A stretch of 64,000 bases of DNA from Candidatus Micrarchaeota archaeon (GCA_030648615.1 JAUSHJ010000045.1:25071-89070), one strand, 5' to 3'; shown: positions 40,118-58,051, counted from the stretch's first letter. The notes: generated by a model not told the origin, from the letters alone. Numbers and translations are program-made.

Positions 40118-41179
40118 ATGGAAATTTCTCAGGAAATGTTGGCTAGAGCAAAAAATAAAGGCAAGCTAATTCTTCATGATGAAGAGATAAAATACTCCAG
40201 ATTTCGGGAAGGTTCTGGTAAAATACCACGAGGAACAGTTTTGATTGGTGAAAGAATAATCTTTGGTTTTCCACACATTAAACGAATTTTCACGTTACAA
40301 AAAGGACTAGAAAAAAATATAACTGAGGACGAGTTTTACATAGAAGAGAAAATAGATGGATTCAATGTACGTGCTATATTGATTGATGGAAAGATTTTTG
40401 CATTTAGTAGAGGTGGATTCGTTGATCCTTTTGTAACTGAAAAAGTGAGAGAGATACAACTAGAAAAGTTTTTCTCTGATTATCCTAATTCCGTACTTTG
40501 TGGAGAGATGATTGGTAGAACACCTTATACCCGAAATGATTTTGAGCCTAAACTGCTTGTGTTCGACATTATGAATGCCGATGGAGAGTACGTGGAAGTT
40601 GAAAAAAAGTACGAAATACTAAAAAATTATAAAATTGATAGCGTCCCTACTTTTGGAAGATTTACTATAAAAAATATGGAAAAAATAAAACAAGTTGCAT
40701 TGAAACTCATGAAAGAAAAGAAAGAAGGCATGGTAATCAAAAGCAGAATTAGCAACCGCTGTAAATATGTGAATCCGTTTGCTGACATCCATGACATTAT
40801 TGGTAATGCAAGAATTATGTTCGACATGCCTTCTGGCTTTTTCATCCAGCGCGTTTTACGTTCAGCGATGTTTATTAGAGATTTCAAACTGGATGAAAAC
40901 AAGTACGCAAAAGAACTTGGCAGTGCATTTTATGGGAAACTTATTGAAACGCTAAAAGAAGTAGAAAAAGGAAAACTTATTGCAGAAGAATTTGAGATTT
41001 CCATAAAAGATGTTTCTATCTGGAACAAAATAGTAAAGCACATGGGAAAAGAGATAAAACTTGAGAAGATTTCGGAAAAGAAAGAGAATGGAAAATTAAG
41101 AATAAAATTTAGAAAAATATACAAGAGAACAAATCAGAAATTCCGGGAATTTTTATCCGGAAAGGGAATTGAGGATTAA
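40118..41179 (+). CDS. ATP-dependent RNA ligase (archaeal Rnl3/Pab1020-like)
   Basis: 353 aa; nucleotidyltransferase motif I EEKIDGFNVRA (KxDG), overall size and Lys-rich C-terminus as in archaeal RNA ligases. Confidence 0.6.
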   Translation: MEISQEMLARAKNKGKLILHDEEIKYSRFREGSGKIPRGTVLIGERIIFGFPHIKRIFTLQKGLEKNITEDEFYIEEKIDGFNVRAILIDGKIFAFSRGGFVDPFVTEKVREIQLEKFFSDYPNSVLCGEMIGRTPYTRNDFEPKLLVFDIMNADGEYVEVEKKYEILKNYKIDSVPTFGRFTIKNMEKIKQVALKLMKEKKEGMVIKSRISNRCKYVNPFADIHDIIGNARIMFDMPSGFFIQRVLRSAMFIRDFKLDENKYAKELGSAFYGKLIETLKEVEKGKLIAEEFEISIKDVSIWNKIVKHMGKEIKLEKISEKKENGKLRIKFRKIYKRTNQKFREFLSGKGIED

Positions 41180-42777: not shown

Positions 42778-43353
42778 CTATTTCTTCATCTTCTTAAGCA
42801 TTGCAAACATCTTACTGCCATTAAGCCATTCGCAACCAACCTTATTCGCGAATTTCAAAACACCTTCATCACTACTAACTAAAGTTGCCTCTAACTCTTT
42901 TGCAAGCATAACTAACTCAAAATCCTCTTTACTGTCAAGTAAACCTGCACGAACAGCATCCCTATATTTCTCTCTTAACTTCTGAAGTTTAACATTATTC
43001 TCAGGTTTATTATCCTGAGCATATTCCTCTGCCAATCGCAATCCTTTATTCATGCGACCTCGCACGTCCTCAATGAAATCGTGGAGCACTGCAGCAGGAA
43101 GATAAAGTGCATAAATATTTGGTGCTCTTTTTTTTATATGCAATTCAAATTCACTTGAAATTTTTTCTCCAATAAAATTCTTCAACTCCATGAATATCAA
43201 AGAGGGCATGTAAAACTCTGCATCCAGTTTAGATATCATTTTGATGAAAGATTTTACTGCAAGCGGAGGGGTCTTACCGAATTTCTCCCGTGCATGAGGA
43301 TTTACAAATAATGAAGTATCTAATACAAATCTTCTGGTTAGTACCATAGGCAT
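42778..43353 (-). CDS. PIN-like nuclease domain protein, likely HARP-type minimal protein-only RNase P
   Basis: 191 aa; N-terminal FVLDTSLF PIN start, RMNKGLRLAEEY and LLDSKEDFELVMLAKELEATLVSSDEG resemble Aq_880-type HARP proteins as recalled. Confidence 0.5.
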   Translation of the reverse strand: MPMVLTRRFVLDTSLFVNPHAREKFGKTPPLAVKSFIKMISKLDAEFYMPSLIFMELKNFIGEKISSEFELHIKKRAPNIYALYLPAAVLHDFIEDVRGRMNKGLRLAEEYAQDNKPENNVKLQKLREKYRDAVRAGLLDSKEDFELVMLAKELEATLVSSDEGVLKFANKVGCEWLNGSKMFAMLKKMKK

Positions 43354-43515: not shown

Positions 43516-44739
43516 TTATTTTTTCTTTGTTGTATCTGCACTGGTATTCTTTTTGAATTTCTTATAGATTTTGTATATCACAAAGATAATGATTACTGTA
43601 GGAAGCAGGAATCCGATTAATCCGGATAGCACCAGCAAAGCAGCTGATAGAGCAGCAAAGAATGTCCCTGTAAGATCTTCCAAAGGCAATTGGAGATTTG
43701 TCTTAACAGTAGATTTATCTTCTGTAAGTGTTACATAGACAAGAGACTTCTCCGGTCTATTCTTCTCATCAACATCTTTGCTTAGTTGTTTGACTTCTCC
43801 CAGAGCCTTGGCTTTCTCCATGAAAGAATCGAGCTTGTTCGAAGAAACTTGCACTACAGCATAGTATGTTTTCTGACCTGTTGATTCTACGAATCTAAGA
43901 GAACTGATTGATCCTCCTTCATCTGCAACTACAGCCTTAAGCGAATCAAGTGAAGTTGAAAGTTTCCCCTCATTTACCTTAACAGTCATATCTCCTTCTT
44001 TTGCTTCCGATGCAGCAACATCTTCATAGAGATCAAGAGTTATTGTTGACTTTTGTATCTTCCCTTCAAGTGTCCCCTTTTCATTTTTTAACTGTTCTAT
44101 TTCTGTTTCTATTCTTGTAATTTCTCTCTCAACAGTTATCAAATCTTCTACTAGTTCACTTTTATTATAAAGAATATAAAGTCTCTGCAACTCGATGTTT
44201 TTGTTTTGCAATCTTAGATCCAGATCACGATATTGTTTTGTAACATCTTCGATATTTACATTTGCTCCTTTTAATTCACCTAAATTTTTCAACTGTTCAA
44301 AAACACTATCAAATTTTTCAGGAGAAATCTTAAATGAAATAGAATAATGTTTTTGACCACTATATTCATCGTAAGATGTTGAAATTACGGTTCCACCTTG
44401 GGTTTCTACTATGCCTGTGGCTCCCTTTACTTTTTCATCAAGCTGACCACGTTCAAGCTTTATAGATATGGAGCCTTCTTTTGTTTTTAACGGCTGTTCA
44501 CCAGTAAACGTATCTGAAACCTTAGCTTCGTAATTAGCCCCGTCACTTAATGGAGCGTCTGAATAAGAAATAGAATTCTCATCTGAAAATGTATTAGAAG
44601 AAGATGTTACAGGAAAATAATCTGAACTAGATATATCATTTTTTTGTTCAGTAGTAGAATTAATTCCGGATAGACCAGCACATCCTGCAGACAGCAAGAA
44701 AATTCCAAACAGCAAAATAAAGAAAATGTTCAATTTCAT
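43516..44739 (-). CDS. coiled-coil lipoprotein with internal duplication and C-terminal transmembrane anchor (DUF4349-like architecture)
   Basis: 407 aa; lipobox LLSAGC, S/T-rich linker, two repeats (IVETQGGTVISTSYDEYSGQKHYSISFKIS and VVADEGGSISSLRFVESTGQKTYYAVVQVS), central heptad-rich segment, C-terminal transmembrane helix plus KKFKK. Confidence 0.6.
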   Translation of the reverse strand: MKLNIFFILLFGIFLLSAGCAGLSGINSTTEQKNDISSSDYFPVTSSSNTFSDENSISYSDAPLSDGANYEAKVSDTFTGEQPLKTKEGSISIKLERGQLDEKVKGATGIVETQGGTVISTSYDEYSGQKHYSISFKISPEKFDSVFEQLKNLGELKGANVNIEDVTKQYRDLDLRLQNKNIELQRLYILYNKSELVEDLITVEREITRIETEIEQLKNEKGTLEGKIQKSTITLDLYEDVAASEAKEGDMTVKVNEGKLSTSLDSLKAVVADEGGSISSLRFVESTGQKTYYAVVQVSSNKLDSFMEKAKALGEVKQLSKDVDEKNRPEKSLVYVTLTEDKSTVKTNLQLPLEDLTGTFFAALSAALLVLSGLIGFLLPTVIIIFVIYKIYKKFKKNTSADTTKKK

Positions 44740-44985: not shown

Positions 44986-46035
44986 CTATATTAACTTAAT
45001 TAACCCTCTTCCTATTTCTGGAATATTCCCACCGAGCAGACTAGTTGTTGAAAGTACGAATGAAAAAACTATTACCATTGAAATCATTGGCAAGAAACAT
45101 ACTGATACGGTAAGTTGTTTGAGAATTGCAGGCGAAAGGACATTGGTCAATGAATCTATGTCGCCCCTGTAAGCATTAATCCATGAATTAACCTCATAAA
45201 CTTTTGATGGATTAGCATAGCCACAGTATTGAACTTCTTCAAGAGCAGGTAATGCACATACGTAAGCCACTGGATTATGAGTAATAGAATTAGAAACAGC
45301 GGTTGGATCAGCTAAAGTGGGTTGACCCATAAAACTTGGTCTTATAACAGGCAAAGAAATCGCTGATGAGATAATATAGGTAAACGGAAATATAAAATAC
45401 AACCCTAAAGAAAGCGCCATAACATAACCTCCTGCACCTCGAGTAGGTGGAAATGCACGAAGAATAACACCTAAACTTAAAATGAAAAGACCATATGAAC
45501 CTATGAACTTAGATATGTGAATAAGCAGATAATAAAAAAACATGTAGAATTGTGTTAATTCTGTGGCATTTTTTATGCGCTCAGCAAGTATCTTAAAACC
45601 AAAACCGCTTGCATGCTCACTCATGAATATTTCCATATATACAGATGTACCGGCTTCAACTGGTATGCTAGCGACATAGAGAGAACGCATTAAAGTTCGA
45701 GCACATGCTGCTGCCGGATCCATGTACATTATCATAATATCAGTAAGATGTGTACCAGGAGGAAAAACAATCTGACCTGGAAGTAAGCCTACTGAAGTTG
45801 CATAAAGATTCGTAGCTATACTTACTAGCATGCTCTCTCCGCCTGTGACAAATGTAATTAACATGAGAACTATAAAAACAGTTGAAATTGCATAAATAAG
45901 TTCAGTTTTGGCTGTCTGCTCAAGATTTTTTAGATCAAAGACTTTGGAAAACATGTATACTATTGCTGAGGCTATGATAGCTACCATGGAAACTGAAATA
46001 GCAATACCTTCCCAACCTACCACGTATTCTACCAT
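44986..46035 (-). CDS. polytopic membrane protein, FPPTR-loop family member P6
   Basis: 349 aa; N-terminal transmembrane helix, YMFSKVFDLKNLEQTAKTELIYAIS, loop ILRAFPPTRGAGGYVMALSLGLYFIFPFTYI, C-terminus GGNIPEIGRGLIKLI. Confidence 0.7.
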   Translation of the reverse strand: MVEYVVGWEGIAISVSMVAIIASAIVYMFSKVFDLKNLEQTAKTELIYAISTVFIVLMLITFVTGGESMLVSIATNLYATSVGLLPGQIVFPPGTHLTDIMIMYMDPAAACARTLMRSLYVASIPVEAGTSVYMEIFMSEHASGFGFKILAERIKNATELTQFYMFFYYLLIHISKFIGSYGLFILSLGVILRAFPPTRGAGGYVMALSLGLYFIFPFTYIISSAISLPVIRPSFMGQPTLADPTAVSNSITHNPVAYVCALPALEEVQYCGYANPSKVYEVNSWINAYRGDIDSLTNVLSPAILKQLTVSVCFLPMISMVIVFSFVLSTTSLLGGNIPEIGRGLIKLI

Positions 46036-46036
46036 T

Positions 46037-47266
46037 TTATATCAGCCTCGTAAGTGAATTGACATCTATTTCTTCGCCCAATGTCTTACTAAGATATTTA
46101 ACACTTTGAACAAACAATAATACTTGGAATGCAGGTAATAAATAGCCTATTACCAGTCCCATACCAACAGTAGCCATAGGTATTAGAAATGCGGTTGTTA
46201 CAGCAGCACCGAAAGCTACGGAAATCAGTTTACCTATCATGTCCAAAAAGCCAACGGTAACATTTTTGAAAAAATCAAAAATAATATCTCCCGTGTTCTT
46301 GGACTGTTCTTTTAGCGAGTCTGCTTTAGAATCTACAGTATGTGCAGTAAGGCCATAGATAGTAACACTTGCAAAATTATTTATATTATTATCGTAGACG
46401 TTTATTATGGAATCACTAGTTGTGAACAGCATTATGTATGAGGCATTTACATAGAGAGGATAAAGAAGCATGAAACCTATGGCTAACGCTATCAACGTCC
46501 CACCAAATCTACGAGTTGGAGTAAAACAGCGGAGAAATATACCTATTGGAAGATAATATTTTAGACAAGCTGCAATGGCAAATTTTAGTACGTTCAACTG
46601 TGCGATATTAATAATGAGTGCAATTGCCAGTGAAGTAAAAACATTGTAAATCATTTGTTTTAAAGGTGCGGCAAAACCAGCACCTGGAGTAGCAACTATA
46701 CCTACACCCAATGGTCTTGAATATGGAGTAATGGAAGCTAATTGATCGAGCCAAAGGTTTAGTGCATAATTAACATGCATCCAACCTTCAATCTTATCTG
46801 TTATTGAAGTGAAATATTTTTCAGTAGTATCATAAAAACCTAAACTACTGATAGCAGGATCAGTAATACTGGGAAAAACTGCCCCTAGCGTAAGAGAACA
46901 CATTGGAACCATGGCAGCTATGAAAGAACCTACAATGATTACACTTGCAAAAACTTCAAATAATTCTAATTTTACAAAACTTCTAATAGTATCAGTTTTA
47001 AAAAAATAGGAAAACATGTAAAGAAAAGTCAACAGCATGATAGATGCTACGATAGCTAATGGCCAAAATGGGACCCAGGTAGTCCAGAAATCTGAATCGG
47101 CAGCACCTTGAGAGCATATGAAAGCCTGGAGAGAAGAATTTGCAGGTGCACCTCCTTGACCACCTGTGGATGGTGTAGAACTCAGCCCTTCCATAGTACA
47201 ACCTGAAAGCAAAAGTAGAATTGCAAATGAAAGGACATAGAATAGTTTTTTAGTCATCATATCCAC
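46037..47266 (-). CDS. polytopic membrane protein, FPPTR-loop family member P5 (lipoprotein-type signal)
   Basis: 409 aa; LLLSGC lipobox, YMFSYFFKTDTIRSFVKLELFEVFAS, loop FLRCFTPTRRFGGTLIALAIGFMLLYPLYV, C-terminus EIDVNSLTRLI. Confidence 0.7.
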   Translation of the reverse strand: MDMMTKKLFYVLSFAILLLLSGCTMEGLSSTPSTGGQGGAPANSSLQAFICSQGAADSDFWTTWVPFWPLAIVASIMLLTFLYMFSYFFKTDTIRSFVKLELFEVFASVIIVGSFIAAMVPMCSLTLGAVFPSITDPAISSLGFYDTTEKYFTSITDKIEGWMHVNYALNLWLDQLASITPYSRPLGVGIVATPGAGFAAPLKQMIYNVFTSLAIALIINIAQLNVLKFAIAACLKYYLPIGIFLRCFTPTRRFGGTLIALAIGFMLLYPLYVNASYIMLFTTSDSIINVYDNNINNFASVTIYGLTAHTVDSKADSLKEQSKNTGDIIFDFFKNVTVGFLDMIGKLISVAFGAAVTTAFLIPMATVGMGLVIGYLLPAFQVLLFVQSVKYLSKTLGEEIDVNSLTRLI

Positions 47267-48537
47267 CTTGCAAAAGACATAAAGTTAACATCCACACTCA
47301 ACCAACTCGCCACTTCTCTTGCAAATGTCAGAGTCGTAAAAATATTTATGAATGGCAATAATATGCTTATTATAACGATATAATAAATCGCACTTCGTAT
47401 GAGTTCAAACGCGGTGGTAAGTCCTGCACCTATAAAGAAAGGCACGAATACCCCAGCAGCCAGGAATGAGATTGAAACTACAGTAAGTCCTACTCCCAGA
47501 AGGCCGCTATTAGTTACAAAATCAGTCATAATGCTCTTCTGCGACGTTACATCTACACCTAAACTATACTGAAGAATAGTATGTGCTTCATGAGTTACTA
47601 AAAACATAAACGGATACATTATCGCAAAACTAAAGAAAAGCGCTAATATTGCATCTCCAGCACCTCGTAGTGGTGGAATTGCCCTTAGAACTACACCTAG
47701 AGGAATGAAGAATGTCCATGTCCATTTTTTTATCATGCATAGCATGACTAAATGTATTATCCACTCACCTAAACCTACGGAAAGAAGCTGCATTGTAAAA
47801 CCCAGCATATCGACTATGGGCTTAAGTATTGGACCTAAATTAAATGAAAACATAGCACGCCAGGTTATTCCAAACCACATGGTAGCACTGAAAAGAGTAT
47901 GAATTATTGTATTGTATATCAAAAGAAAACCATAGGCTGAAGAAATTTCAGCTATCATTTGCCTGGAAAATGCCATAGATGCATCTATCATCGTATTCTG
48001 CTGGAGAACTGGATCGGTAGTGGTAAATGTTTTAAATCCATACCAGGTTTGACTTGCTTGCATAAACATAACTATGAATAGCAAAGCCAGAACAGTCCTG
48101 CCAAGTTCAAACATCAAATCCTTTGATACAGCAACAAGATTCTGAGACTGAAACAATTGACTAAACATGTAAATCAGGATTGCAACAAAAAGCACAATTA
48201 GCACAGACATGATGACATAGTTAGTCCATTCTGCACCGAATATGGTTAAATATTCTTTTGGAACACCTGGAACAGTAGAAACCCAGGATGTACCGCAACT
48301 ACCTGGGTCCACAATATCATAAATAGTACTTGCTGCAGCATTTGCTTGAGCACCCCCTCTTGTAAAACCAGGAATGTCATTAACGAATTTACTTATGGTG
48401 TCAATTATACCAGTACTTGGAGGGGGTGAAGTCTGCGCAAATGAAATTGTAGAAAGCAGTAGCACTAGTGCAACCACGAAAAATATTTTTTTGTTATCCA
48501 GTTTGTAATTCATAGAATCATCAGTTTGCTTTGACAT
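47257..48537 (-). CDS. polytopic membrane protein, FPPTR-loop family member P4 (signal peptide; start uncertain)
   Basis: Start at MSKQTDD (48537) or MNYKL (48513); the longer listed ORF runs into a hairpin repeat; loop VLRAIPPLRGAGDAILALFFSFAIMYPFMFLV. Confidence 0.65.
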   Translation of the reverse strand: MSKQTDDSMNYKLDNKKIFFVVALVLLLSTISFAQTSPPPSTGIIDTISKFVNDIPGFTRGGAQANAAASTIYDIVDPGSCGTSWVSTVPGVPKEYLTIFGAEWTNYVIMSVLIVLFVAILIYMFSQLFQSQNLVAVSKDLMFELGRTVLALLFIVMFMQASQTWYGFKTFTTTDPVLQQNTMIDASMAFSRQMIAEISSAYGFLLIYNTIIHTLFSATMWFGITWRAMFSFNLGPILKPIVDMLGFTMQLLSVGLGEWIIHLVMLCMIKKWTWTFFIPLGVVLRAIPPLRGAGDAILALFFSFAIMYPFMFLVTHEAHTILQYSLGVDVTSQKSIMTDFVTNSGLLGVGLTVVSISFLAAGVFVPFFIGAGLTTAFELIRSAIYYIVIISILLPFINIFTTLTFAREVASWLSVDVNFMSFARWI

Positions 48538-48552
48538 CTTTGATGTCAAATA

Positions 48553-48636
48553 TCCCAATTGTCGTTTGACGACAATGGGCATCTTGTTGCTTCAAGCAAC
48601 AAGCTTGTGTCAGCATTTTTCTGCCCTGCTGACAAT
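48553..48636. repeat. hairpin-cluster element, copy 6 (inside the membrane-protein array)
   Basis: cccaattgtcgtttgacgacaa, then tgggcatcttgttgcttcaagcaacaa, then ttgtgtcagcatttttctgccctgctgacaa. Confidence 0.85.
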
Positions 48637-48678
48637 GCTCTGCTGTGCAAATCTGTAAAGTAACATAGTTACTTCACA

Positions 48679-50034
48679 TCATATAAGGTGTGTTAAACCA
48701 GCTATTTCTACATCTCCACCCAAAGTTATTGAAATACTTCTTATTGCTGCAATGGTTGCAAGAACTCCGAAGAATGAAAAAAATACAGAGAAGAAAGTTA
48801 ACCTTGACACAACATCCATTACTCCACCGTCTTCAAGTGAAATGGATACGAAATTATCATAGAATTTTTTCTTTCCCAGATTACCTGTAAATGTAGTACC
48901 AACACCTTGTAACTCTTTTAAGTCAGCATCACTCAACTGATTCGTACGAGCAGTTAGATCTGCATCACCATTAGGTAAATTTAGATTAACACTTGGGAAA
49001 TAACCATCTGGAGAAGCACCATCTGCAATTTTATCTCTTGTAACTTGAGGCTCAACTCCAACTAAACTATAATAATCAAGCTGCTGCTGATTGAGGTCGT
49101 AACTGCCAGTGAGAAGTGGCACTTTACCGTTTATATAAAGATGATCTGCAATAGATGGGATATTATCAGGACCAAGGTATGCGGCATGCTGTATAGAAAT
49201 GGCTAACATTGCACCAAAAACATAGAACATAGGAAATATATAGAATAGTGCAAGAGCGATAGCCATGAGCAAACCCCCAAGACGCCTAGTAAATGAAAAT
49301 GTCCTAAGTACAAGACCAACAATGAAGAGATTTGGAAATAGTGCCTTTGATACAAAAGCTATTAGTATTTCCTGAAACTTGGTAAGCGTCATCATCTTCA
49401 TAGCAAAATCAAACCCAGCAGTCTTCATCGCATTACCCATGGTAAAAAAACCACGCCAGGGAGTTATGGTGAAGAAACCTGCTTTGTCAGTAACGAATTC
49501 GATATTTATCGCAAAATCAGCTATTGTTGAAGTAATCATGTATGATTGATAAATCTTAAATGCAACGTTTGAAGTTTCTTGGAAAATAGTATTTAAATAA
49601 TATATGGAAAGACGAATATGGCAATGAGGTATGTCAGCATAGGGAGAAACTGAACTAAGTGCAAGTGGATCTGCAGCTCTATCGTAATTAGTACCTGGTG
49701 CAAATGAGCATATATCCTGAGTTACATATTTACCTGGATTTGCAGCATCTGGAAAAAACCCTTGAGTAAGATACGAAGGATTAGACCCAGAGGAATCGTG
49801 CAATATCCCATAAGCAACACTGTCAAACATACCTATCCAAGAGAAAACTGCAGCAAGAAGAATCAGTGAATAAAATATTTCAAACAACTCTAATTTTGCC
49901 CATAGTTTCATCTTGTCATCTACAAGAACACTACCGAACATATACACCAGTGAGACTAGCACGGTACTTATTACCACTAATATGACCGCAACGAAACTCC
50001 ACGAAGAATATAATGCAGTTAGTGAATCAACCAT
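48679..50034 (-). CDS. polytopic membrane protein, FPPTR-loop family member P3
   Basis: 451 aa; YMFGSVLVDDKMKLWAKLELFEIFYS, loop LVLRTFSFTRRLGGLLMAIALALFYIFPMFYVF, C-terminus GGDVEIAGLTHLI. Confidence 0.7.
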   Translation of the reverse strand: MVDSLTALYSSWSFVAVILVVISTVLVSLVYMFGSVLVDDKMKLWAKLELFEIFYSLILLAAVFSWIGMFDSVAYGILHDSSGSNPSYLTQGFFPDAANPGKYVTQDICSFAPGTNYDRAADPLALSSVSPYADIPHCHIRLSIYYLNTIFQETSNVAFKIYQSYMITSTIADFAINIEFVTDKAGFFTITPWRGFFTMGNAMKTAGFDFAMKMMTLTKFQEILIAFVSKALFPNLFIVGLVLRTFSFTRRLGGLLMAIALALFYIFPMFYVFGAMLAISIQHAAYLGPDNIPSIADHLYINGKVPLLTGSYDLNQQQLDYYSLVGVEPQVTRDKIADGASPDGYFPSVNLNLPNGDADLTARTNQLSDADLKELQGVGTTFTGNLGKKKFYDNFVSISLEDGGVMDVVSRLTFFSVFFSFFGVLATIAAIRSISITLGGDVEIAGLTHLI

Positions 50035-50038
50035 AGTA

Positions 50039-51034
50039 TCAACTACTTTTTCCAGATAGGAATTTCATAAATGCGTTTATAAACGCAAGAGTTATCGTCG
50101 CTGAAAGGGCAGGAATAAATAAACTCGGTATTGATAACGCCCCTAGCGATTCTATTATGGGAAAGAAAAATGCTGGAGTTGCTATTATATTGACTCCGAA
50201 TTCTGAGAAAAGAAACTTTACAAATGGGGCAATAATGGGAATTCTTCCAAGTGGATTTTGATTATTACCAAGAACACCGAACAGAACCCATTGACCGCCA
50301 CAAAGCATAGTAACATCAAAAGTTTTTCCAGAATATATCTGGTCAGGCTTAGGGAAACCCATCAGTTGATCGTTATAAACCTGCATACTCAGGATATATG
50401 TAAGTGGAAAAACTGACTGAAAACCTATTGCTATGGCTATCAGAAATATACCTGCCTGTCTAGTTGGTGGAAAGAACCTTAGAATAATACCTGCTGGAAA
50501 TACAAACGGCAGCAATATGGCATCGATGATGACGAAAATAGTAGACTGTGCGGTAAGGCTCCCGTAAACTGCTATAAGTCCGTAGCCAACAACATTAGTT
50601 ATGGAAACCAGAGAATCTATACCTGGAAATAGTTTATAAGACAGAGTAAGTACGTACTCCCCAATACGTCTTTGGAAAGTACTAAGAACAGAAAGGCATA
50701 CCTGAGCCCTGAAAACATCAGTTATGGCATTTTGAGTACTCTCTCTTATTTGATAGATATAACCTATGGCAATATCTATGGCAGATTGAGAGGAACCACC
50801 CCCAACAATATCTGAAGCAACTGTGGAAGCAATGAAATTAGAAGATTCTAAGAAAGCTATGGAAAATATTACTATCAACAATGAGACAAAAACCTCTTGA
50901 AGTTCTATATTGAAATATGCTTCCAGTTCATTAGACTGAGTAAGTTTAGCTGCCATATAAGTAAGTGCTAGGAAAATAGTCATGATGAAGCCCATGATGA
51001 ATATTACCCAACCGTAGATAGCTATGTCAACCAT
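50039..51034 (-). CDS. polytopic membrane protein, FPPTR-loop family member P2
   Basis: 331 aa; YMAAKLTQSNELEAYFNIELQEVFVS, loop ILRFFPPTRQAGIFLIAIAIGFQSVFPLTYI; lacks the shared C-terminal tail. Confidence 0.7.
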   Translation of the reverse strand: MVDIAIYGWVIFIMGFIMTIFLALTYMAAKLTQSNELEAYFNIELQEVFVSLLIVIFSIAFLESSNFIASTVASDIVGGGSSQSAIDIAIGYIYQIRESTQNAITDVFRAQVCLSVLSTFQRRIGEYVLTLSYKLFPGIDSLVSITNVVGYGLIAVYGSLTAQSTIFVIIDAILLPFVFPAGIILRFFPPTRQAGIFLIAIAIGFQSVFPLTYILSMQVYNDQLMGFPKPDQIYSGKTFDVTMLCGGQWVLFGVLGNNQNPLGRIPIIAPFVKFLFSEFGVNIIATPAFFFPIIESLGALSIPSLFIPALSATITLAFINAFMKFLSGKSS

Positions 51035-51036
51035 TT

Positions 51037-52704
51037 TTACACCAATTTTGTTAATCCTGCTATTTCAAGTTCCCCACCTATTATGGCTGCAACATTTCGA
51101 TACATTGTAATTGTAAATATTATTTCTAAAACTGAAGTTATTATTATTAATACGATCAATTGAGAAACGGTAACTACTTCATCTATAATGAATTTATAAA
51201 GCCCAGAAGTAGATGCAGATGGGAAGAAAGGATTATTTGATAACGGATGGTGAATTACTTCTGCCATTGCACCTACAAATCCGGAAGTCATAGACCACAT
51301 AAACTTGCCTATGGTAAAAATATTATCCGTTGCAGCTGACAGAACACCTCCAAAATTAGATATGAGTTTCTTTCCGCTACACAGAAGACCCCAGAAACCG
51401 CTTCCGCATGCAGCCTGAACCTGGAACTCAGTTAATGTTTCTGATGCGAATTCATCTGTAAGCTCATCTTTTTTGTGTTCAGTTTCAATATCTACAAGTT
51501 CCTGTATTTTAGCTGGGTCAGGATTACCTAGCGGACTTATGGTTTTCGGAACATAGTTGAAATCTGCGGGTTTATATACATCAAATATCAAATAATTTGA
51601 AAAAAGAACTGAAAGCGGATATACATAAAATACTACGAACGAAATTGCGATAAGGCTCGAACCGGTTTTTCTTGTCATTGGAAAAGCTCTGAAAACTATA
51701 CCCAGAGGCAGAATTATCAGGGGGATTATATCTCTTGCAAAACCAAGAATTATTTGTTTTGCCATGATCGCAGTTATTACAAAACCTATTGCTTCTACAA
51801 CAACCGTATGTGCGTTACTCAGAAGCACAAGCCCGTCATAGGGCATAAATGAAAATGTGACTAGATTTACCAAAGGCAATGGAGAACCTAGAGGAAACGA
51901 TAAAGTTGAAAGAAAACCTATGAGGACTTCAAATAGATAAAGCTGGCTATAGGTAGCACGCATCTTTTCGAATAGTATATCAAGAGCTGCACTTGCAAGA
52001 TAAATGTGAGGAGAAACTGAAATTTCTGGACTTGTGGCATGGGCAGCAATAGCATCACCAACATTTGGTGAACCTGCAGTCAATATGCCAACTATCAAAT
52101 TAGGCAAATATGCATTACTTGCAAGCCAAAACCAAACTATAATCACGCTGAATATTGTTGCGGCTAGTTCTTCCTTGGCTATGGCACTTAGGGGTGGATG
52201 CTGAAAGAAATATGCCATCATGTAAGTGGCTGCTGTTATGAGCATGCAAAGCGTTATGGATTTGAGAACTGGGAGATATATAAGACTAAACATCGACGGA
52301 ATACCAGAGTCTGGATGCTCTATACCTTGAAGTGCGACAGTTGTGAGAATAGGGCTAAGTACAAATGCTATAATTGCAGCAAAAAGTGCTCCCAAAAGTA
52401 GATTGTGAGACCATACTACAGCACGTGCCCTAGTTTCTGCGCCTGATAACTGACCGACAACATAAACTAATGCTGCGAACATTATCATCATCATTATGCC
52501 GATGGGAACCCAGGAGCCATAAAGGTCAAAAAAGGCACAAATCTCATATGAAACCGTACCTGGTACGGGAGCATTTATTCGGTGTAAATTACAAAAATCT
52601 TCAACACCCTGGGCGGAAACGATATTACTAACAGAAATAAGAAAAAATACGATAAGAAATAATTTTGTAACTGTACCTGAGGGTAGAATAACACGATCTG
52701 CCAT
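51037..52704 (-). CDS. polytopic membrane protein, FPPTR-loop family member P1 (signal peptide, largest)
   Basis: 555 aa; signal LFLIVFFLISVSNIVSAQG, loop IVFRAFPMTRKTGSSLIAISFVVFYVYPLSVL, C-terminus GGELEIAGLTKLV. Confidence 0.7.
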   Translation of the reverse strand: MADRVILPSGTVTKLFLIVFFLISVSNIVSAQGVEDFCNLHRINAPVPGTVSYEICAFFDLYGSWVPIGIMMMIMFAALVYVVGQLSGAETRARAVVWSHNLLLGALFAAIIAFVLSPILTTVALQGIEHPDSGIPSMFSLIYLPVLKSITLCMLITAATYMMAYFFQHPPLSAIAKEELAATIFSVIIVWFWLASNAYLPNLIVGILTAGSPNVGDAIAAHATSPEISVSPHIYLASAALDILFEKMRATYSQLYLFEVLIGFLSTLSFPLGSPLPLVNLVTFSFMPYDGLVLLSNAHTVVVEAIGFVITAIMAKQIILGFARDIIPLIILPLGIVFRAFPMTRKTGSSLIAISFVVFYVYPLSVLFSNYLIFDVYKPADFNYVPKTISPLGNPDPAKIQELVDIETEHKKDELTDEFASETLTEFQVQAACGSGFWGLLCSGKKLISNFGGVLSAATDNIFTIGKFMWSMTSGFVGAMAEVIHHPLSNNPFFPSASTSGLYKFIIDEVVTVSQLIVLIIITSVLEIIFTITMYRNVAAIIGGELEIAGLTKLV

Positions 52705-56180: not shown

Positions 56181-57200
56181 ATGTTATTCGCAAAAGTAAG
56201 AAAAAATATAGGTGAACGTGTAAGAAAGGAGCTTTTGCACAGAGAAGTTCTTTCAGCTAATTATAAAGTAAAAACAGATAATCATTTTGTCTATTTCCCA
56301 GTAACACGAAAAATAAATTTACATGGAGTACATTACATAACCATAGTTGTTGAACCTCAAAAGAAAAAACCAAAAAGTGTCGTTGAATATCTTGAAGAGA
56401 AATACGGGAAAACTACTACACAACAACTTACAAAGTCATTTGATATTGTAGGAGACATTGCGATAGTAGAATTACCTGAACGACTGGCACATTTTGACAG
56501 CAAAGTTGCAGAAGCAGTAATTGCGATACACCCCAATATTAAAGTCGTTGCGAAGAAACTTGGTGCGATGTCTGGAGAATTTCGCGTAAGACCGATGAAA
56601 GTAATTTATGGGGAGAATCGCACAGAAACGATACACCGAGAAAATGACTGCCTAATGAAAGTAGATGTTGCAAGAGCGTATTTCTCCGTAAGATTAAGCA
56701 CAGAAAGAATGAGAATTGCAACTTTAGTTAGAGAAGGTGAAAACGTACTAGTTATGTTCTCTGGTGTTGCACCATTTGCACTGGTGATCGCAAAAAGAAA
56801 ACCGCACACAAAGATAGTATGTATAGAATTAAACGAAGTGGCAGTGCAATATGCAAATGAAAATGTCAAGTTAAATAAATTTTATAATATAGAAAATATT
56901 TGTGGAGATGTTAAAGACGTTATACCTGAAAGATTTTTAAATTGGGCAGACAGAGTAGTTATGCCACTGCCAAAAACTTCTAATGAATTCCTAGATGTTG
57001 CATTCAAAGCTGCGAAAAACGGTGCGATGATACACCTATACCACATAGGTGATTTTGAGAATGCAGAAGAACTGATCCACAAGGTAGCAAAAGAAAATAA
57101 TGCATCTGTAAATATAACTGGTCATCACATTGTAAGACCCTACGCACCTAGGCTAGATCAGATTTGTGTTGATTTCGTAGTTAGGAAAAAAAATCAATAG
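56181..57200 (+). CDS. trm5: tRNA (guanine37-N1)-methyltransferase Trm5 (Met-10+ family)
   Basis: 339 aa; SFDIVGDIAIVE motif, Rossmann SAM-binding VLVMFSGVAPFALVIA. Confidence 0.8.
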   Translation: MLFAKVRKNIGERVRKELLHREVLSANYKVKTDNHFVYFPVTRKINLHGVHYITIVVEPQKKKPKSVVEYLEEKYGKTTTQQLTKSFDIVGDIAIVELPERLAHFDSKVAEAVIAIHPNIKVVAKKLGAMSGEFRVRPMKVIYGENRTETIHRENDCLMKVDVARAYFSVRLSTERMRIATLVREGENVLVMFSGVAPFALVIAKRKPHTKIVCIELNEVAVQYANENVKLNKFYNIENICGDVKDVIPERFLNWADRVVMPLPKTSNEFLDVAFKAAKNGAMIHLYHIGDFENAEELIHKVAKENNASVNITGHHIVRPYAPRLDQICVDFVVRKKNQ

Positions 57201-58051
57201 ATTCCAGCCAGCAATCCAATCAGGAAAAACAATAACATTCCAAGAACAAGCGGTGGCAACGCAGGCAGAACTAATTTTTTATTTAAGAACAAGTGAAGAA
57301 AAACTAAAAGTGAAACGGTTGCACCTAGAAAAACCATAATGACTGCATTGAAACCAAATGGCAAAACCGAAACCTCAAGCATTATCGGAGCAATTATATC
57401 CCCAGTACCTAAATCTATTCTGTGTCGTTTTCCTTCAACAAACCTTGGAGTACCTTCAGCCGTTTGTGCAGTGATTGTAAAAGCAAGATCTTTTTTTATA
57501 ATAAATTCGGCCATCTCCACCATGTGTTTTGTGGTGAATACTGCCACAAAATCATATAGTGAAAGCAAGACCAAAAACAAGACTGCAGGAACGAGACCAA
57601 ACGATATACCAAATATTGCACCTACCCCTGCCGTAGCTAATACGGCTGCTGCATTCTTTGCTTTTGGTAAAACAAATTTTATGGCTGCAAATGCAAGCCC
57701 GGCAGCAATTCCAAAGGTAGTCGCATAACCATAGTCAAGAAAAATGCGTGAGATTGCATAGAAAACAATTGATGACGAAGTTGAAATCATAAAAAATTCA
57801 AGAAGTCTAAATAATATTTCGTGAGTTTTGAAAAACCTGATCATGATTATTATAAAAACTGCACCTATTAGGATGAAACCAAAATAATACAATGCGTTTA
57901 TCGGTTCATTTATATCTTCATTAACTGCAAAAGAAGCTACGTAGGGATTTGCTAATGTATCGTTCAGAATTATTATTCCTGTATAAATGCCCATTAACTG
58001 GGCAACTATGAATAATACTAGCAGATTGAATATGAGTTTCATATAATCCAT
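57194..58051 (-). CDS. presenilin/signal-peptide-peptidase homolog (A22 intramembrane aspartyl protease)
   Basis: 285 aa, ~9 transmembrane helices; ordered catalytic motifs LSLYDF (YD), LGTGD (GxGD), LPALPP (PAL). Confidence 0.75.
   Translation of the reverse strand: MDYMKLIFNLLVLFIVAQLMGIYTGIIILNDTLANPYVASFAVNEDINEPINALYYFGFILIGAVFIIIMIRFFKTHEILFRLLEFFMISTSSSIVFYAISRIFLDYGYATTFGIAAGLAFAAIKFVLPKAKNAAAVLATAGVGAIFGISFGLVPAVLFLVLLSLYDFVAVFTTKHMVEMAEFIIKKDLAFTITAQTAEGTPRFVEGKRHRIDLGTGDIIAPIMLEVSVLPFGFNAVIMVFLGATVSLLVFLHLFLNKKLVLPALPPLVLGMLLFFLIGLLAGIY

Follow-up and report, generated by a model that had tools for sequence, protein, structure and literature searches.

The window analysed in this work is a stretch of 64,000 nucleotides from a Candidatus Micrarchaeota metagenome-assembled genome (MAG; JAUSHJ010000045.1:25071-89070). 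Six tightly packed open reading frames (ORFs), named P1 to P6 from the first gene to the last, fill positions 44986-52704 on the minus strand. All translations were re-checked against the coordinates, and P1 is identical to an NCBI entry from such a MAG. Five of the six proteins (P1, P3, P4, P5, and P6) exhibit a conserved peptide, the tail, at the exact C-terminus, and P2 alone is without it. The six ORFs and the C-termini of P1, P3, P5, and P6 that had been quoted in a first-pass annotation of the window were exactly confirmed by translation. The genes, the tails, and other features are listed in Table 1.

Table 1. The P1-P6 array and its surroundings in the window (TM, transmembrane helix; tail positions are counted backwards from the last residue, which is 0).
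Feature	Position	Strand	Characteristics
P1, gene 1	51037..52704	-	555 aa; AlphaFold2 model all-helical
P2, gene 2	50039..51034	-	331 aa, short form; ends ...TLAFINAFMKFLSGKSS
P3, gene 3	48679..50034	-	451 aa; canonical 5-TM core, two large loops predicted extracellular
P4, gene 4	47257..48582	-	441 aa as longest ORF
P5, gene 5	46037..47266	-	409 aa; N-terminus resembles lipoprotein signal (LLLSGC)
P6, gene 6, last	44986..46035	-	349 aa
P1 tail	51040..51078	-	GGELEIAGLTKLV-COOH; consensus IGGEAEI-x-GLTK-x-V; G(-11) 71/72, G(-5) 71/72, K(-2) 67/72
P3 tail	48682..48720	-	GGDVEIAGLTHLI-COOH; consensus G-G-D-x-E-I-A-G-L-T-[RH]-L-I
P4 tail	47260..47298	-	SVDVNFMSFARWI-COOH; consensus [VTA]-[DE]-[VI]-N-F-x-[SA]-F-x-[KR]-[IL]-I (76 orthologues)
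P5 tail	46040..46078	-	GEEIDVNSLTRLI-COOH; consensus G-E-E-V-D-I-[ST]-S-L-T-R-[ML]-I; G 76/76, D 75/76, L 72, T 73, R 75
P6 tail	44989..45033	-	GGNIPEIGRGLIKLI-COOH; consensus GGNIPEIGRGLVKLI; E 73/73, G 72-73/73, R 70/73, K 69/73
P3 TM3-TM4 loop	49276..49308	-	LRTFSFTRRLG; second family hallmark block, consensus LRxFPPTRxxGG
P1 TM3-TM4 loop	51661-51693	-	equivalent of the P3 loop
P2 TM3-TM4 loop	50450-50482	-	equivalent of the P3 loop
P4 TM3-TM4 loop	47656-47688	-	equivalent of the P3 loop
P5 TM3-TM4 loop	46502-46534	-	equivalent of the P3 loop
P6 TM3-TM4 loop	45430-45462	-	equivalent of the P3 loop
P1 N-terminal extension	52299-52704	-	residues 1-135
Last codons of P3	48682-48690		T(-3)/R(-2) codon bias
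Last codons of P5	46040-46048		T(-3)/R(-2) codon bias
DUF4349 lipoprotein	43516-44739	-	Pfam E 7e-43
PIN_5 ribonuclease	42778-43353	-
Rnl3-type RNA ligase	40118-41179	+
Presenilin/signal-peptide-peptidase (SPP) homologue	57194-58051	-	PF06550, E 4e-21

The six proteins are members of one family. HHalign reported a probability of at least 99.2% for all 15 pairs of the six orthologue-group profiles, which demonstrates mutual homology, and the paralogues in the window align at 21-24% identity to P1. Hydropathy exhibits a common core of five TM helices in all six. All six paralogues also have a TM1 that contains 'YM', a loop with the consensus LPLGIVLRAFPPTRxAGG, and a last TM helix that is followed by the tail, except in P2. 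R339, R345, and G348 of the TM3-TM4 loop are invariant in all paralogues. The operational definition of the family consists of the 5-TM core with YM in TM1, the LRxFPPTRxxGG loop, and membership in a P1-P6 array, and P1 to P6 exhibit all three. The family hidden Markov model (HMM) matches only these six ORFs within the 64-kb window.

The genes in the window array are separated by gaps of 1-4 nt or joined by ATGA-type overlaps, except for an apparent gap of 96 nt between P3 and P4. That gap is probably due to an over-long ORF call for P4, of which the true start is probably further downstream, at an internal Met of the signal-peptide-like segment MNYKLDNKKIFFVVAL / 'MNYKLDNKKIFF'. For P5, an ATG that is preceded by AAGGTGG and overlaps the stop of P4 (ATGA) is probably the real start, and is likelier than the listed GTG.

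The array was compared across approximately 80 species-level loci, with 72 orthologues of P1, 76 of P2, 80 of P3, 76 of P4, 76 of P5, and 73 of P6. Complete arrays at these loci always exhibit the order P1-P2-P3-P4-P5-P6, with one copy of each gene and all genes on one strand. Across loci, the genes are separated by median distances of 0-7 nt and exhibit ATGA-type overlaps, a spacing consistent with translational coupling and equal dosage. When GTDB species genomes were scanned for the pattern, 260 loci were identified, and the 80 that were retrieved are all from Micrarchaeota or unclassified archaea. The divergent matches that have names are also from Micrarchaeota. No relatives were found in IMG/VR, and a viral or mobile origin is unsupported.

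The five tails exhibit a common pattern with subunit-specific variants. Position 0 is I or V, and the penultimate residue is V, L, I, or M in all five tails and never Tyr. Position -2 is basic in all five tails, being K in P1 (67/72), P6 (69/73), and P4 (53/76), R or H in P3 (44 and 34 of 80), and R in P5 (75/76). The residues at -6/-5 differ by subunit: A-G in P3 (79/80), [MS]-[SA] in P4, and R-G in P6, where the tail also has a one-residue insertion relative to the other tails. These variants are kept over phylum-scale divergence. Most fixed positions of the P3 tail are kept in 76-79 of the 80 orthologues (G, G, D, E, A, and G in 79; L and T in 78), and I at position 0 is kept in 71. The length of the tail is constant, with 20 residues beyond the basic residue that closes TM5 (21 in P6).

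The first-pass annotation had described both P2 and P4 as tail-less, which holds for P2 and fails for P4. The P4 tail is diverged yet homologous, since it can be aligned with the other tails in every column and the HHalign alignments of P4 with P1, P5, and P6 reach the last residue. No tail was found in 76/76 P2 orthologues, which end in approximately TIAFINAMTKFIxxKx, and the P2 stop falls about where the 'GG' of the tail would lie. The other frames of the P2 gene in the window also do not contain a hidden, frameshifted, or read-through tail. The suggestion of alternate tagged and untagged subclasses that pair is therefore abandoned, as P4 is tailed and P2 is the sole exception; the profiles also do not separate tagged from untagged members, as they place P4 nearest to P5 and P1 nearest to P3.

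The tail is specific to the family and is among its best-conserved segments. The C-terminal pattern [LF]-x-[KRH]-[LIVMW]-[IV]-COOH was found on 5 of the 231 stop-to-stop ORFs of at least 60 aa in the window, which are exactly P1, P3, P4, P5, and P6. Across 84 related loci, the same pattern was found on 343/479 family ORFs and 0/1275 non-family ORFs. Chance is far from accounting for such a distribution. A generic C-terminus that unrelated proteins of the genome also carry had been named as grounds for rejecting the motif, and these counts remove that objection; the conservation of the last residues among the orthologues answers the other objection, that the tails might not be conserved. As a window of 13 residues, the tail ranks 1/439 in conservation in P3, 1/397 in P5, 5 in P6, and 8 in P1. 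The P1 and P6 tails are among the three best-conserved separate blocks of their proteins, the other top block being the TM3-TM4 loop.

The same result was obtained from database sequences. A profile search of 1.84 billion representatives identified 2877 relatives at E<=1e-3. The P1 orthologues in the database end in IGGE-x-E-[IL]-x-G-[LIV]-[TS]-K-x-[VI] in 119 of 120 cases, and nearly all listed sequences among 143 further HMMER matches reach the end of the profile and finish in some type of tail. Among more than 600 sequences, nearly all stop at the tail and do not extend beyond it, the exceptions being truncated fragments and one match with a single extra residue. The invariant residues of the tail are encoded freely by 2-6 synonymous codons, except for biased codons at -3/-2 in P3 and P5, and therefore selection on the tail acts at the protein level. 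The earlier description of the tail as a short linear motif after the last TM helix of diverged paralogues is thus borne out by strong protein-level selection.

No known relatives of the family were detected. There was no Pfam match at E<=1 for the six window proteins, 78 members of the P3 type, or the orthologues at one related locus (L001), and the NCBIfam scan gave no family for the array proteins. Sequence-profile searches of the PDB with three alignments gave nothing below E 0.8, and Foldseek searches of the PDB with the AlphaFold2 models of P1 and P3 gave nothing at E<0.07. Literature searches on the motif and on membrane gene clusters of Micrarchaeota found no description. The tail is a signature of an undescribed, probable six-paralogue membrane complex of phylum-wide occurrence without detectable known relatives, a finding that the first-pass annotation understated. 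What is new is a six-gene operon of membrane proteins with an orphan fold, in fixed order in every complete array, that is not described in Pfam, NCBIfam, the PDB, or the searched literature. Micrarchaeota are host-dependent archaea of the DPANN group, and most of their envelope and host-interaction machinery is without molecular identity. The near-invariant C-terminal peptide of 13 residues is an experimental handle on whether the six paralogues form one complex and on what lies beneath it, and ...GGD-x-EIAGLT[RH]LI-COOH is a simple signature for recognising the family in metagenomes.

Several candidate relationships were tried and rejected. The top six Foldseek PDB matches for the P3 model are the Tweety homologues TTYH1-3, at non-significant values (E 0.07-0.28, TM score 0.12-0.21; the best has E 0.074, a TM score of 0.21, and a root-mean-square deviation of 18 A). 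Both groups exhibit five TM helices, an N-out/C-in arrangement (predicted for the array proteins), and extracellular helices that continue from the TM helices. However, TTYH proteins are eukaryotic homodimers without the tail and without sequence similarity to the array proteins, there is no PDB sequence match, and the 5-TM N-out/C-in architecture is all that the two groups have in common. Tandem arrays of VirB6/TrbL paralogues have been reported in the type IV secretion system (T4SS) of Rickettsiales (PMC7648143). Those arrays are similar to P1-P6 in that they consist of tandem polytopic paralogues with unusually long helices that are thought to build one hetero-oligomeric membrane platform. 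However, no VirB4, VirB11, VirD4, or other T4SS genes flank the P1-P6 array and there is no Pfam match to TrbL/VirB6 (PF04610). The Foldseek match to TrwI/VirB6 of R388 (8rt9_F) is at noise level (E 1.1, TM score 0.18-0.26, query TM score 0.18) and is missing from the list of P1 matches.

An intramembrane aspartyl protease of the GxGD type (presenilin, SPP, or prepilin peptidase), which needs two catalytic Asp residues within TM helices (YD and GxGD), was also rejected. The 'GGD' of P3 is located after TM5, outside the membrane. The equivalent site is GGE in P1, GEE in P5, and GGN in P6 and is missing in P2 and P4, and there is no conserved intramembrane YD.

The topology of the proteins was deduced from the distribution of charges and cysteines. 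Pooled over approximately 460 orthologues, the TM3-TM4 loop has 18.7 K+R per 100 residues (against 2.8 D+E), the tail 12.1, and the TM1-TM2 loop 11.8. This content falls to 4.6-5.6 in the two long loops and the N-terminus, which are net acidic and hold almost all cysteines. The N-termini of P1, P4, and P5 are signal-peptide-like or lipobox-like. On the basis of these three features we infer an N-out/C-in topology, in which the tail would be cytoplasmic and located beside the Arg-rich TM3-TM4 loop.

The AlphaFold2 (AF2) monomer model of P3 has a mean predicted local distance difference test (pLDDT) of 84.8 and a predicted template modelling score (pTM) of 0.81, and that of P1 has a pLDDT of 77.4 and a pTM of 0.70. 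Both models exhibit helices of 35-50 residues that run from the membrane into helical and hairpin domains on the predicted extracellular side. The tail is modelled as a Gly-rich coil followed by one helical turn (residues 551-554 in P1 and 447-450 in P3). The pLDDT of the tail is 63 then 52 in P3, the lowest in that model, and 79 then 62 in P1, against 92-94 for TM5. A segment that is conserved yet of low pLDDT is typical of one that becomes ordered only on binding outside its own chain.

The invariant order and copy number, the tight gene coupling, the mutual homology, and the position-specific conservation indicate that P1-P6 would constitute one operon-encoded, hetero-oligomeric membrane complex specific to Micrarchaeota, in which every paralogue has its own position. 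As had been suggested from the window, the tail may serve as a docking tag for a partner. We tentatively favour the reading that the tail is a docking peptide that would lock onto the cytoplasmic face of the neighbouring subunit and so hold the hetero-oligomer together. This reading is based on a tail that is predicted to be cytoplasmic and that is fixed in length, terminal, Gly-rich, subunit-specific, and unplaced in the monomer models. If the terminal carboxylate or a closed pocket is important, the tail should stand strictly at the C-terminus, as it does. Subunit-specific tails are better explained by binding sites that are fixed and individual than by a single shared receptor.

Under the docking reading, each subunit would expose a small cytoplasmic face that consists of the TM1-TM2 loop, the Arg-rich TM3-TM4 loop, and the fixed-length tail, the last two being the best-conserved parts of the family. 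A site on the neighbour, plausibly the region of its Arg-rich loop, would receive four elements of the tail: the free carboxylate, the last two residues (both hydrophobic), the basic residue at -2, and the acidic residues at -10 and -8. The tails would thus latch six different subunits into one fixed arrangement, probably 1:1:1:1:1:1, and the tail-less P2 would mark a single interface that is built differently (a seam or gate). Docking in trans, the stoichiometry, the closure of a ring, and the topology are all what we infer.

Several points weigh against the docking reading. The topology is deduced from the positive-inside rule and the distribution of cysteines, and the contact between tail and subunit is presumed. 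If six subunits closed into a ring, six latches should be required, and five tails are present. A multi-site cytoplasmic partner that touches each tail differently could also yield subunit-specific variants. The covariation between subunits, examined for tail-tail and tail-loop contacts (mutual information with average product correction, 67 concatenated arrays), has a mean Z equal to that of entropy-matched controls, and its top-10 value is exceeded by 37/1000 controls, although near-invariant tails and 67 genomes leave little power. The top pairs are P3(-2)/P4(-3) and tail-tail pairs of P6 and P4, and these are not clearly above the entropy-matched controls.

The alternative that survives best, although we consider it rather unlikely, is that the tails are ligands of a soluble protein in the cytoplasm, distinct from the subunits (such as an ATPase, an adaptor, or a C-terminus binder of the PDZ or TPR kind), that docks under the complex. 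The model for such a partner is the HbYX motif, a C-terminal tripeptide (hydrophobic-Tyr-any) by which proteasomal ATPases dock into the 20S ring and which in eukaryotes is found on some subunits of the ring (Rpt2, Rpt3, and Rpt5). The array tails are similar to the HbYX tails of archaeal PAN and Rpt1-6 in that the protein ends exactly in a short motif that has a hydrophobic residue (two hydrophobic end residues here) and a free carboxylate, and only some paralogues carry it. The low pLDDT of the tail in the monomer models is also as expected for a soluble partner. However, the HbYX proteins are soluble ATPases, and the array proteins are polytopic membrane proteins without an ATPase domain, with a motif of 13 residues and no relationship to them in sequence or fold. 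Membership in the HbYX group was rejected, as the penultimate residue is V, L, I, or M in all five tails and not Tyr. No candidate partner is encoded with the array, of which the frequent neighbours (PIN_5, RNA ligase, and LeuRS) are housekeeping RNA enzymes. No non-family protein in the loci carries the tail, and a single receptor would not need subunit-specific variants.

Two partners that the first-pass annotation had proposed are also disfavoured. PDZ ligands have S/T (class I), a hydrophobic residue (class II), or D/E (class III) at -2 and a hydrophobic residue at 0. The channel tails that bind PDZ domains (connexin-43, ...DLEI; Kir2 and NMDA receptors, ...ES[ED][IV]) are similar to the array tails in having a cytoplasmic extreme C-terminus with an aliphatic end. 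However, the K, R, or H at -2 places the array tails outside classes I-III, so that they are not canonical PDZ ligands, their conservation spans 13 residues, and no PDZ protein was found among the window genes that were scanned. The DUF4349 lipoprotein is found beside the array in 0/80 other genomes, and the bulk of it would be extracellular, in contrast to the predicted cytoplasmic location of the tail.

It is unlikely that the tail acts in cis, as an interfacial element that folds onto its own subunit or onto lipid headgroups and stabilises TM5 or gates a pathway. The short terminal helix after the Gly-rich coil in the AF2 models is consistent with such a role; I(-7), L(-4), and L/I at -1/0 could make a small hydrophobic face, and the acidic residues at -10/-8 could pair with the arginines of the subunit's own TM3-TM4 loop. 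However, AF2 with a deep alignment is normally confident on a conserved cis contact, and the tail has the lowest pLDDT in the P3 model. The three near-invariant glycines and the proline of P6 also disfavour a simple amphipathic helix, and P2 does without a tail in every genome.

A sorting, quality-control, or processing signal, read by a tail-specific protease or a membrane-insertion factor or acting as a degron that is masked on assembly, is highly improbable. Non-polar C-termini are what tail-specific proteases recognise, and a gene for a protease of the presenilin/SPP type is located 4.5 kb away. However, one reading machine should mean a uniform signal, and the tails are subunit-specific; 13 near-invariant residues also exceed the need of known degrons or sorting tags, and the SPP gene is syntenic in 9/80 loci only. 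The array tails are similar to the C-terminal signals of archaeosortases and exosortases (PGF-CTERM and PEF-CTERM) in being a conserved C-terminal element of archaeal envelope proteins. Those signals are tripartite (motif, TM helix, and basic cluster) and cleaved, whereas the array tail follows the last TM helix, makes up the final 13-15 residues of the protein with no hydrophobic segment beyond them, and is predicted to be cytoplasmic. The proposal of an archaeosortase-type sorting signal was accordingly dropped.

Conservation imposed at the nucleotide level (by the ribosome-binding site or start region of the next gene, an overlapping gene, or an RNA element) is effectively refuted, since the codon bias is confined to the last codons of P3 and P5, the other invariant residues vary freely in codon usage, P6 as the last gene keeps the tail with unbiased R/K codons, and the conserved 'GG' precedes the next start by 33-39 nt, a greater distance than a ribosome-binding site allows. 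The bias itself is strong in the window and in the related loci, where the T(-3)/R(-2) codons are biased to ACG AGG. T(-3) is mostly ACG, and R(-2) is AGG in 42/44 P3 orthologues and 69/75 P5 orthologues, which places a Shine-Dalgarno-like GAGG string approximately 10 nt before the next start. Read from sequence, the last tail codons of P3 and P5 thus appear to double as the ribosome-binding site of the downstream paralogue, which is a secondary signal at the DNA level at -3/-2 only.

A wider role for the docked assembly is speculative. Cryo-electron tomography has revealed an unidentified, barrel-shaped docking platform in the envelope of the Micrarchaeote Microcaldus variisymbioticus ARM-1 (PMC11329633). 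The array might be a phylum-specific envelope machine for connection to the host or uptake from it, as a large hetero-oligomeric pore or a conduit for lipids or metabolites, and conceivably a part of the ARM-1 barrel platform, but we regard this as improbable. In such a machine the five cytoplasmic tails and the Arg-rich loops would be the inner gate and P2 would be the seam. The proposal is based only on three points: the array is conserved throughout the phylum, the orphan fold exhibits tall helical domains that would be extracellular, and no other function has been assigned.

P1, at 40-56% identity to 118 orthologues across the phylum, is conserved to a far greater degree than the remaining five subunits. 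It also has specific invariant polar residues (E527, T533, H299, T300, E304, and D325), where E527 is a Glu inside TM5, and an S-N-A-H-T segment. The high conservation and these residues are hints that P1 may be the functional core of the assembly.

The neighbours of the array in the window are housekeeping genes, which consist of LeuRS, Trm5, the SPP/presenilin homologue, MCM, GNAT, PIN_5, and RNA ligase. AspRS or LeuRS is found among the neighbours of array loci. Only three neighbours recur over the 80 loci: PIN_5 (48/80), RNA ligase (36/80), and LeuRS (27/80). The PIN_5 ribonuclease and the Rnl3-type RNA ligase stay together beside the array, also in L001 (17621-19259), and may be a conserved pair for RNA repair or RNA processing without an evident link to the membrane proteins. 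In the window, P6 and PIN_5 are separated by the inserted gene of the DUF4349 lipoprotein, which exhibits a coiled coil in the middle and a TM helix at the C-terminus. PIN_5 directly follows P6 in L001 and L003, the other loci examined gene by gene, and an unrelated ORF of 291 aa without a Pfam match is found there in L004. The presenilin/SPP gene is probably unrelated to the array because of its limited synteny.

One MAG, 'MEGAHIT-group-1.587' (JBDRIM01), exhibits two separate arrays (L008 and L058) that are mutually 42-50% identical, one with a short P2 and the other with a long P2. Either some genomes contain two complete arrays or this bin mixes two organisms.

The N-terminal extension of P1 in the window (approximately 130 residues) consists of a signal-peptide-like segment and two extra TM helices. 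It is homologous (45-65% identity; blastp E approximately 1e-13, tblastn approximately 1e-8) to the N-terminal module of the long form of P2 (approximately 515 aa). The module is often found twice in the long P2 of most other genomes (e.g. L004, 11230-12783) and once in the P6 of L012. Judged from sequence, the module resembles an additional hairpin of the TM1 type, which seems to have been transferred from one subunit to another. That most genomes have it on P2, L012 on P6, and the window on P1 fits subunits that share one assembly. The arrays consist of 36 with a short P1 and a long P2, 28 with both short, five with a long P1 and a short P2 (the window included), and two with a P2 of middle length.

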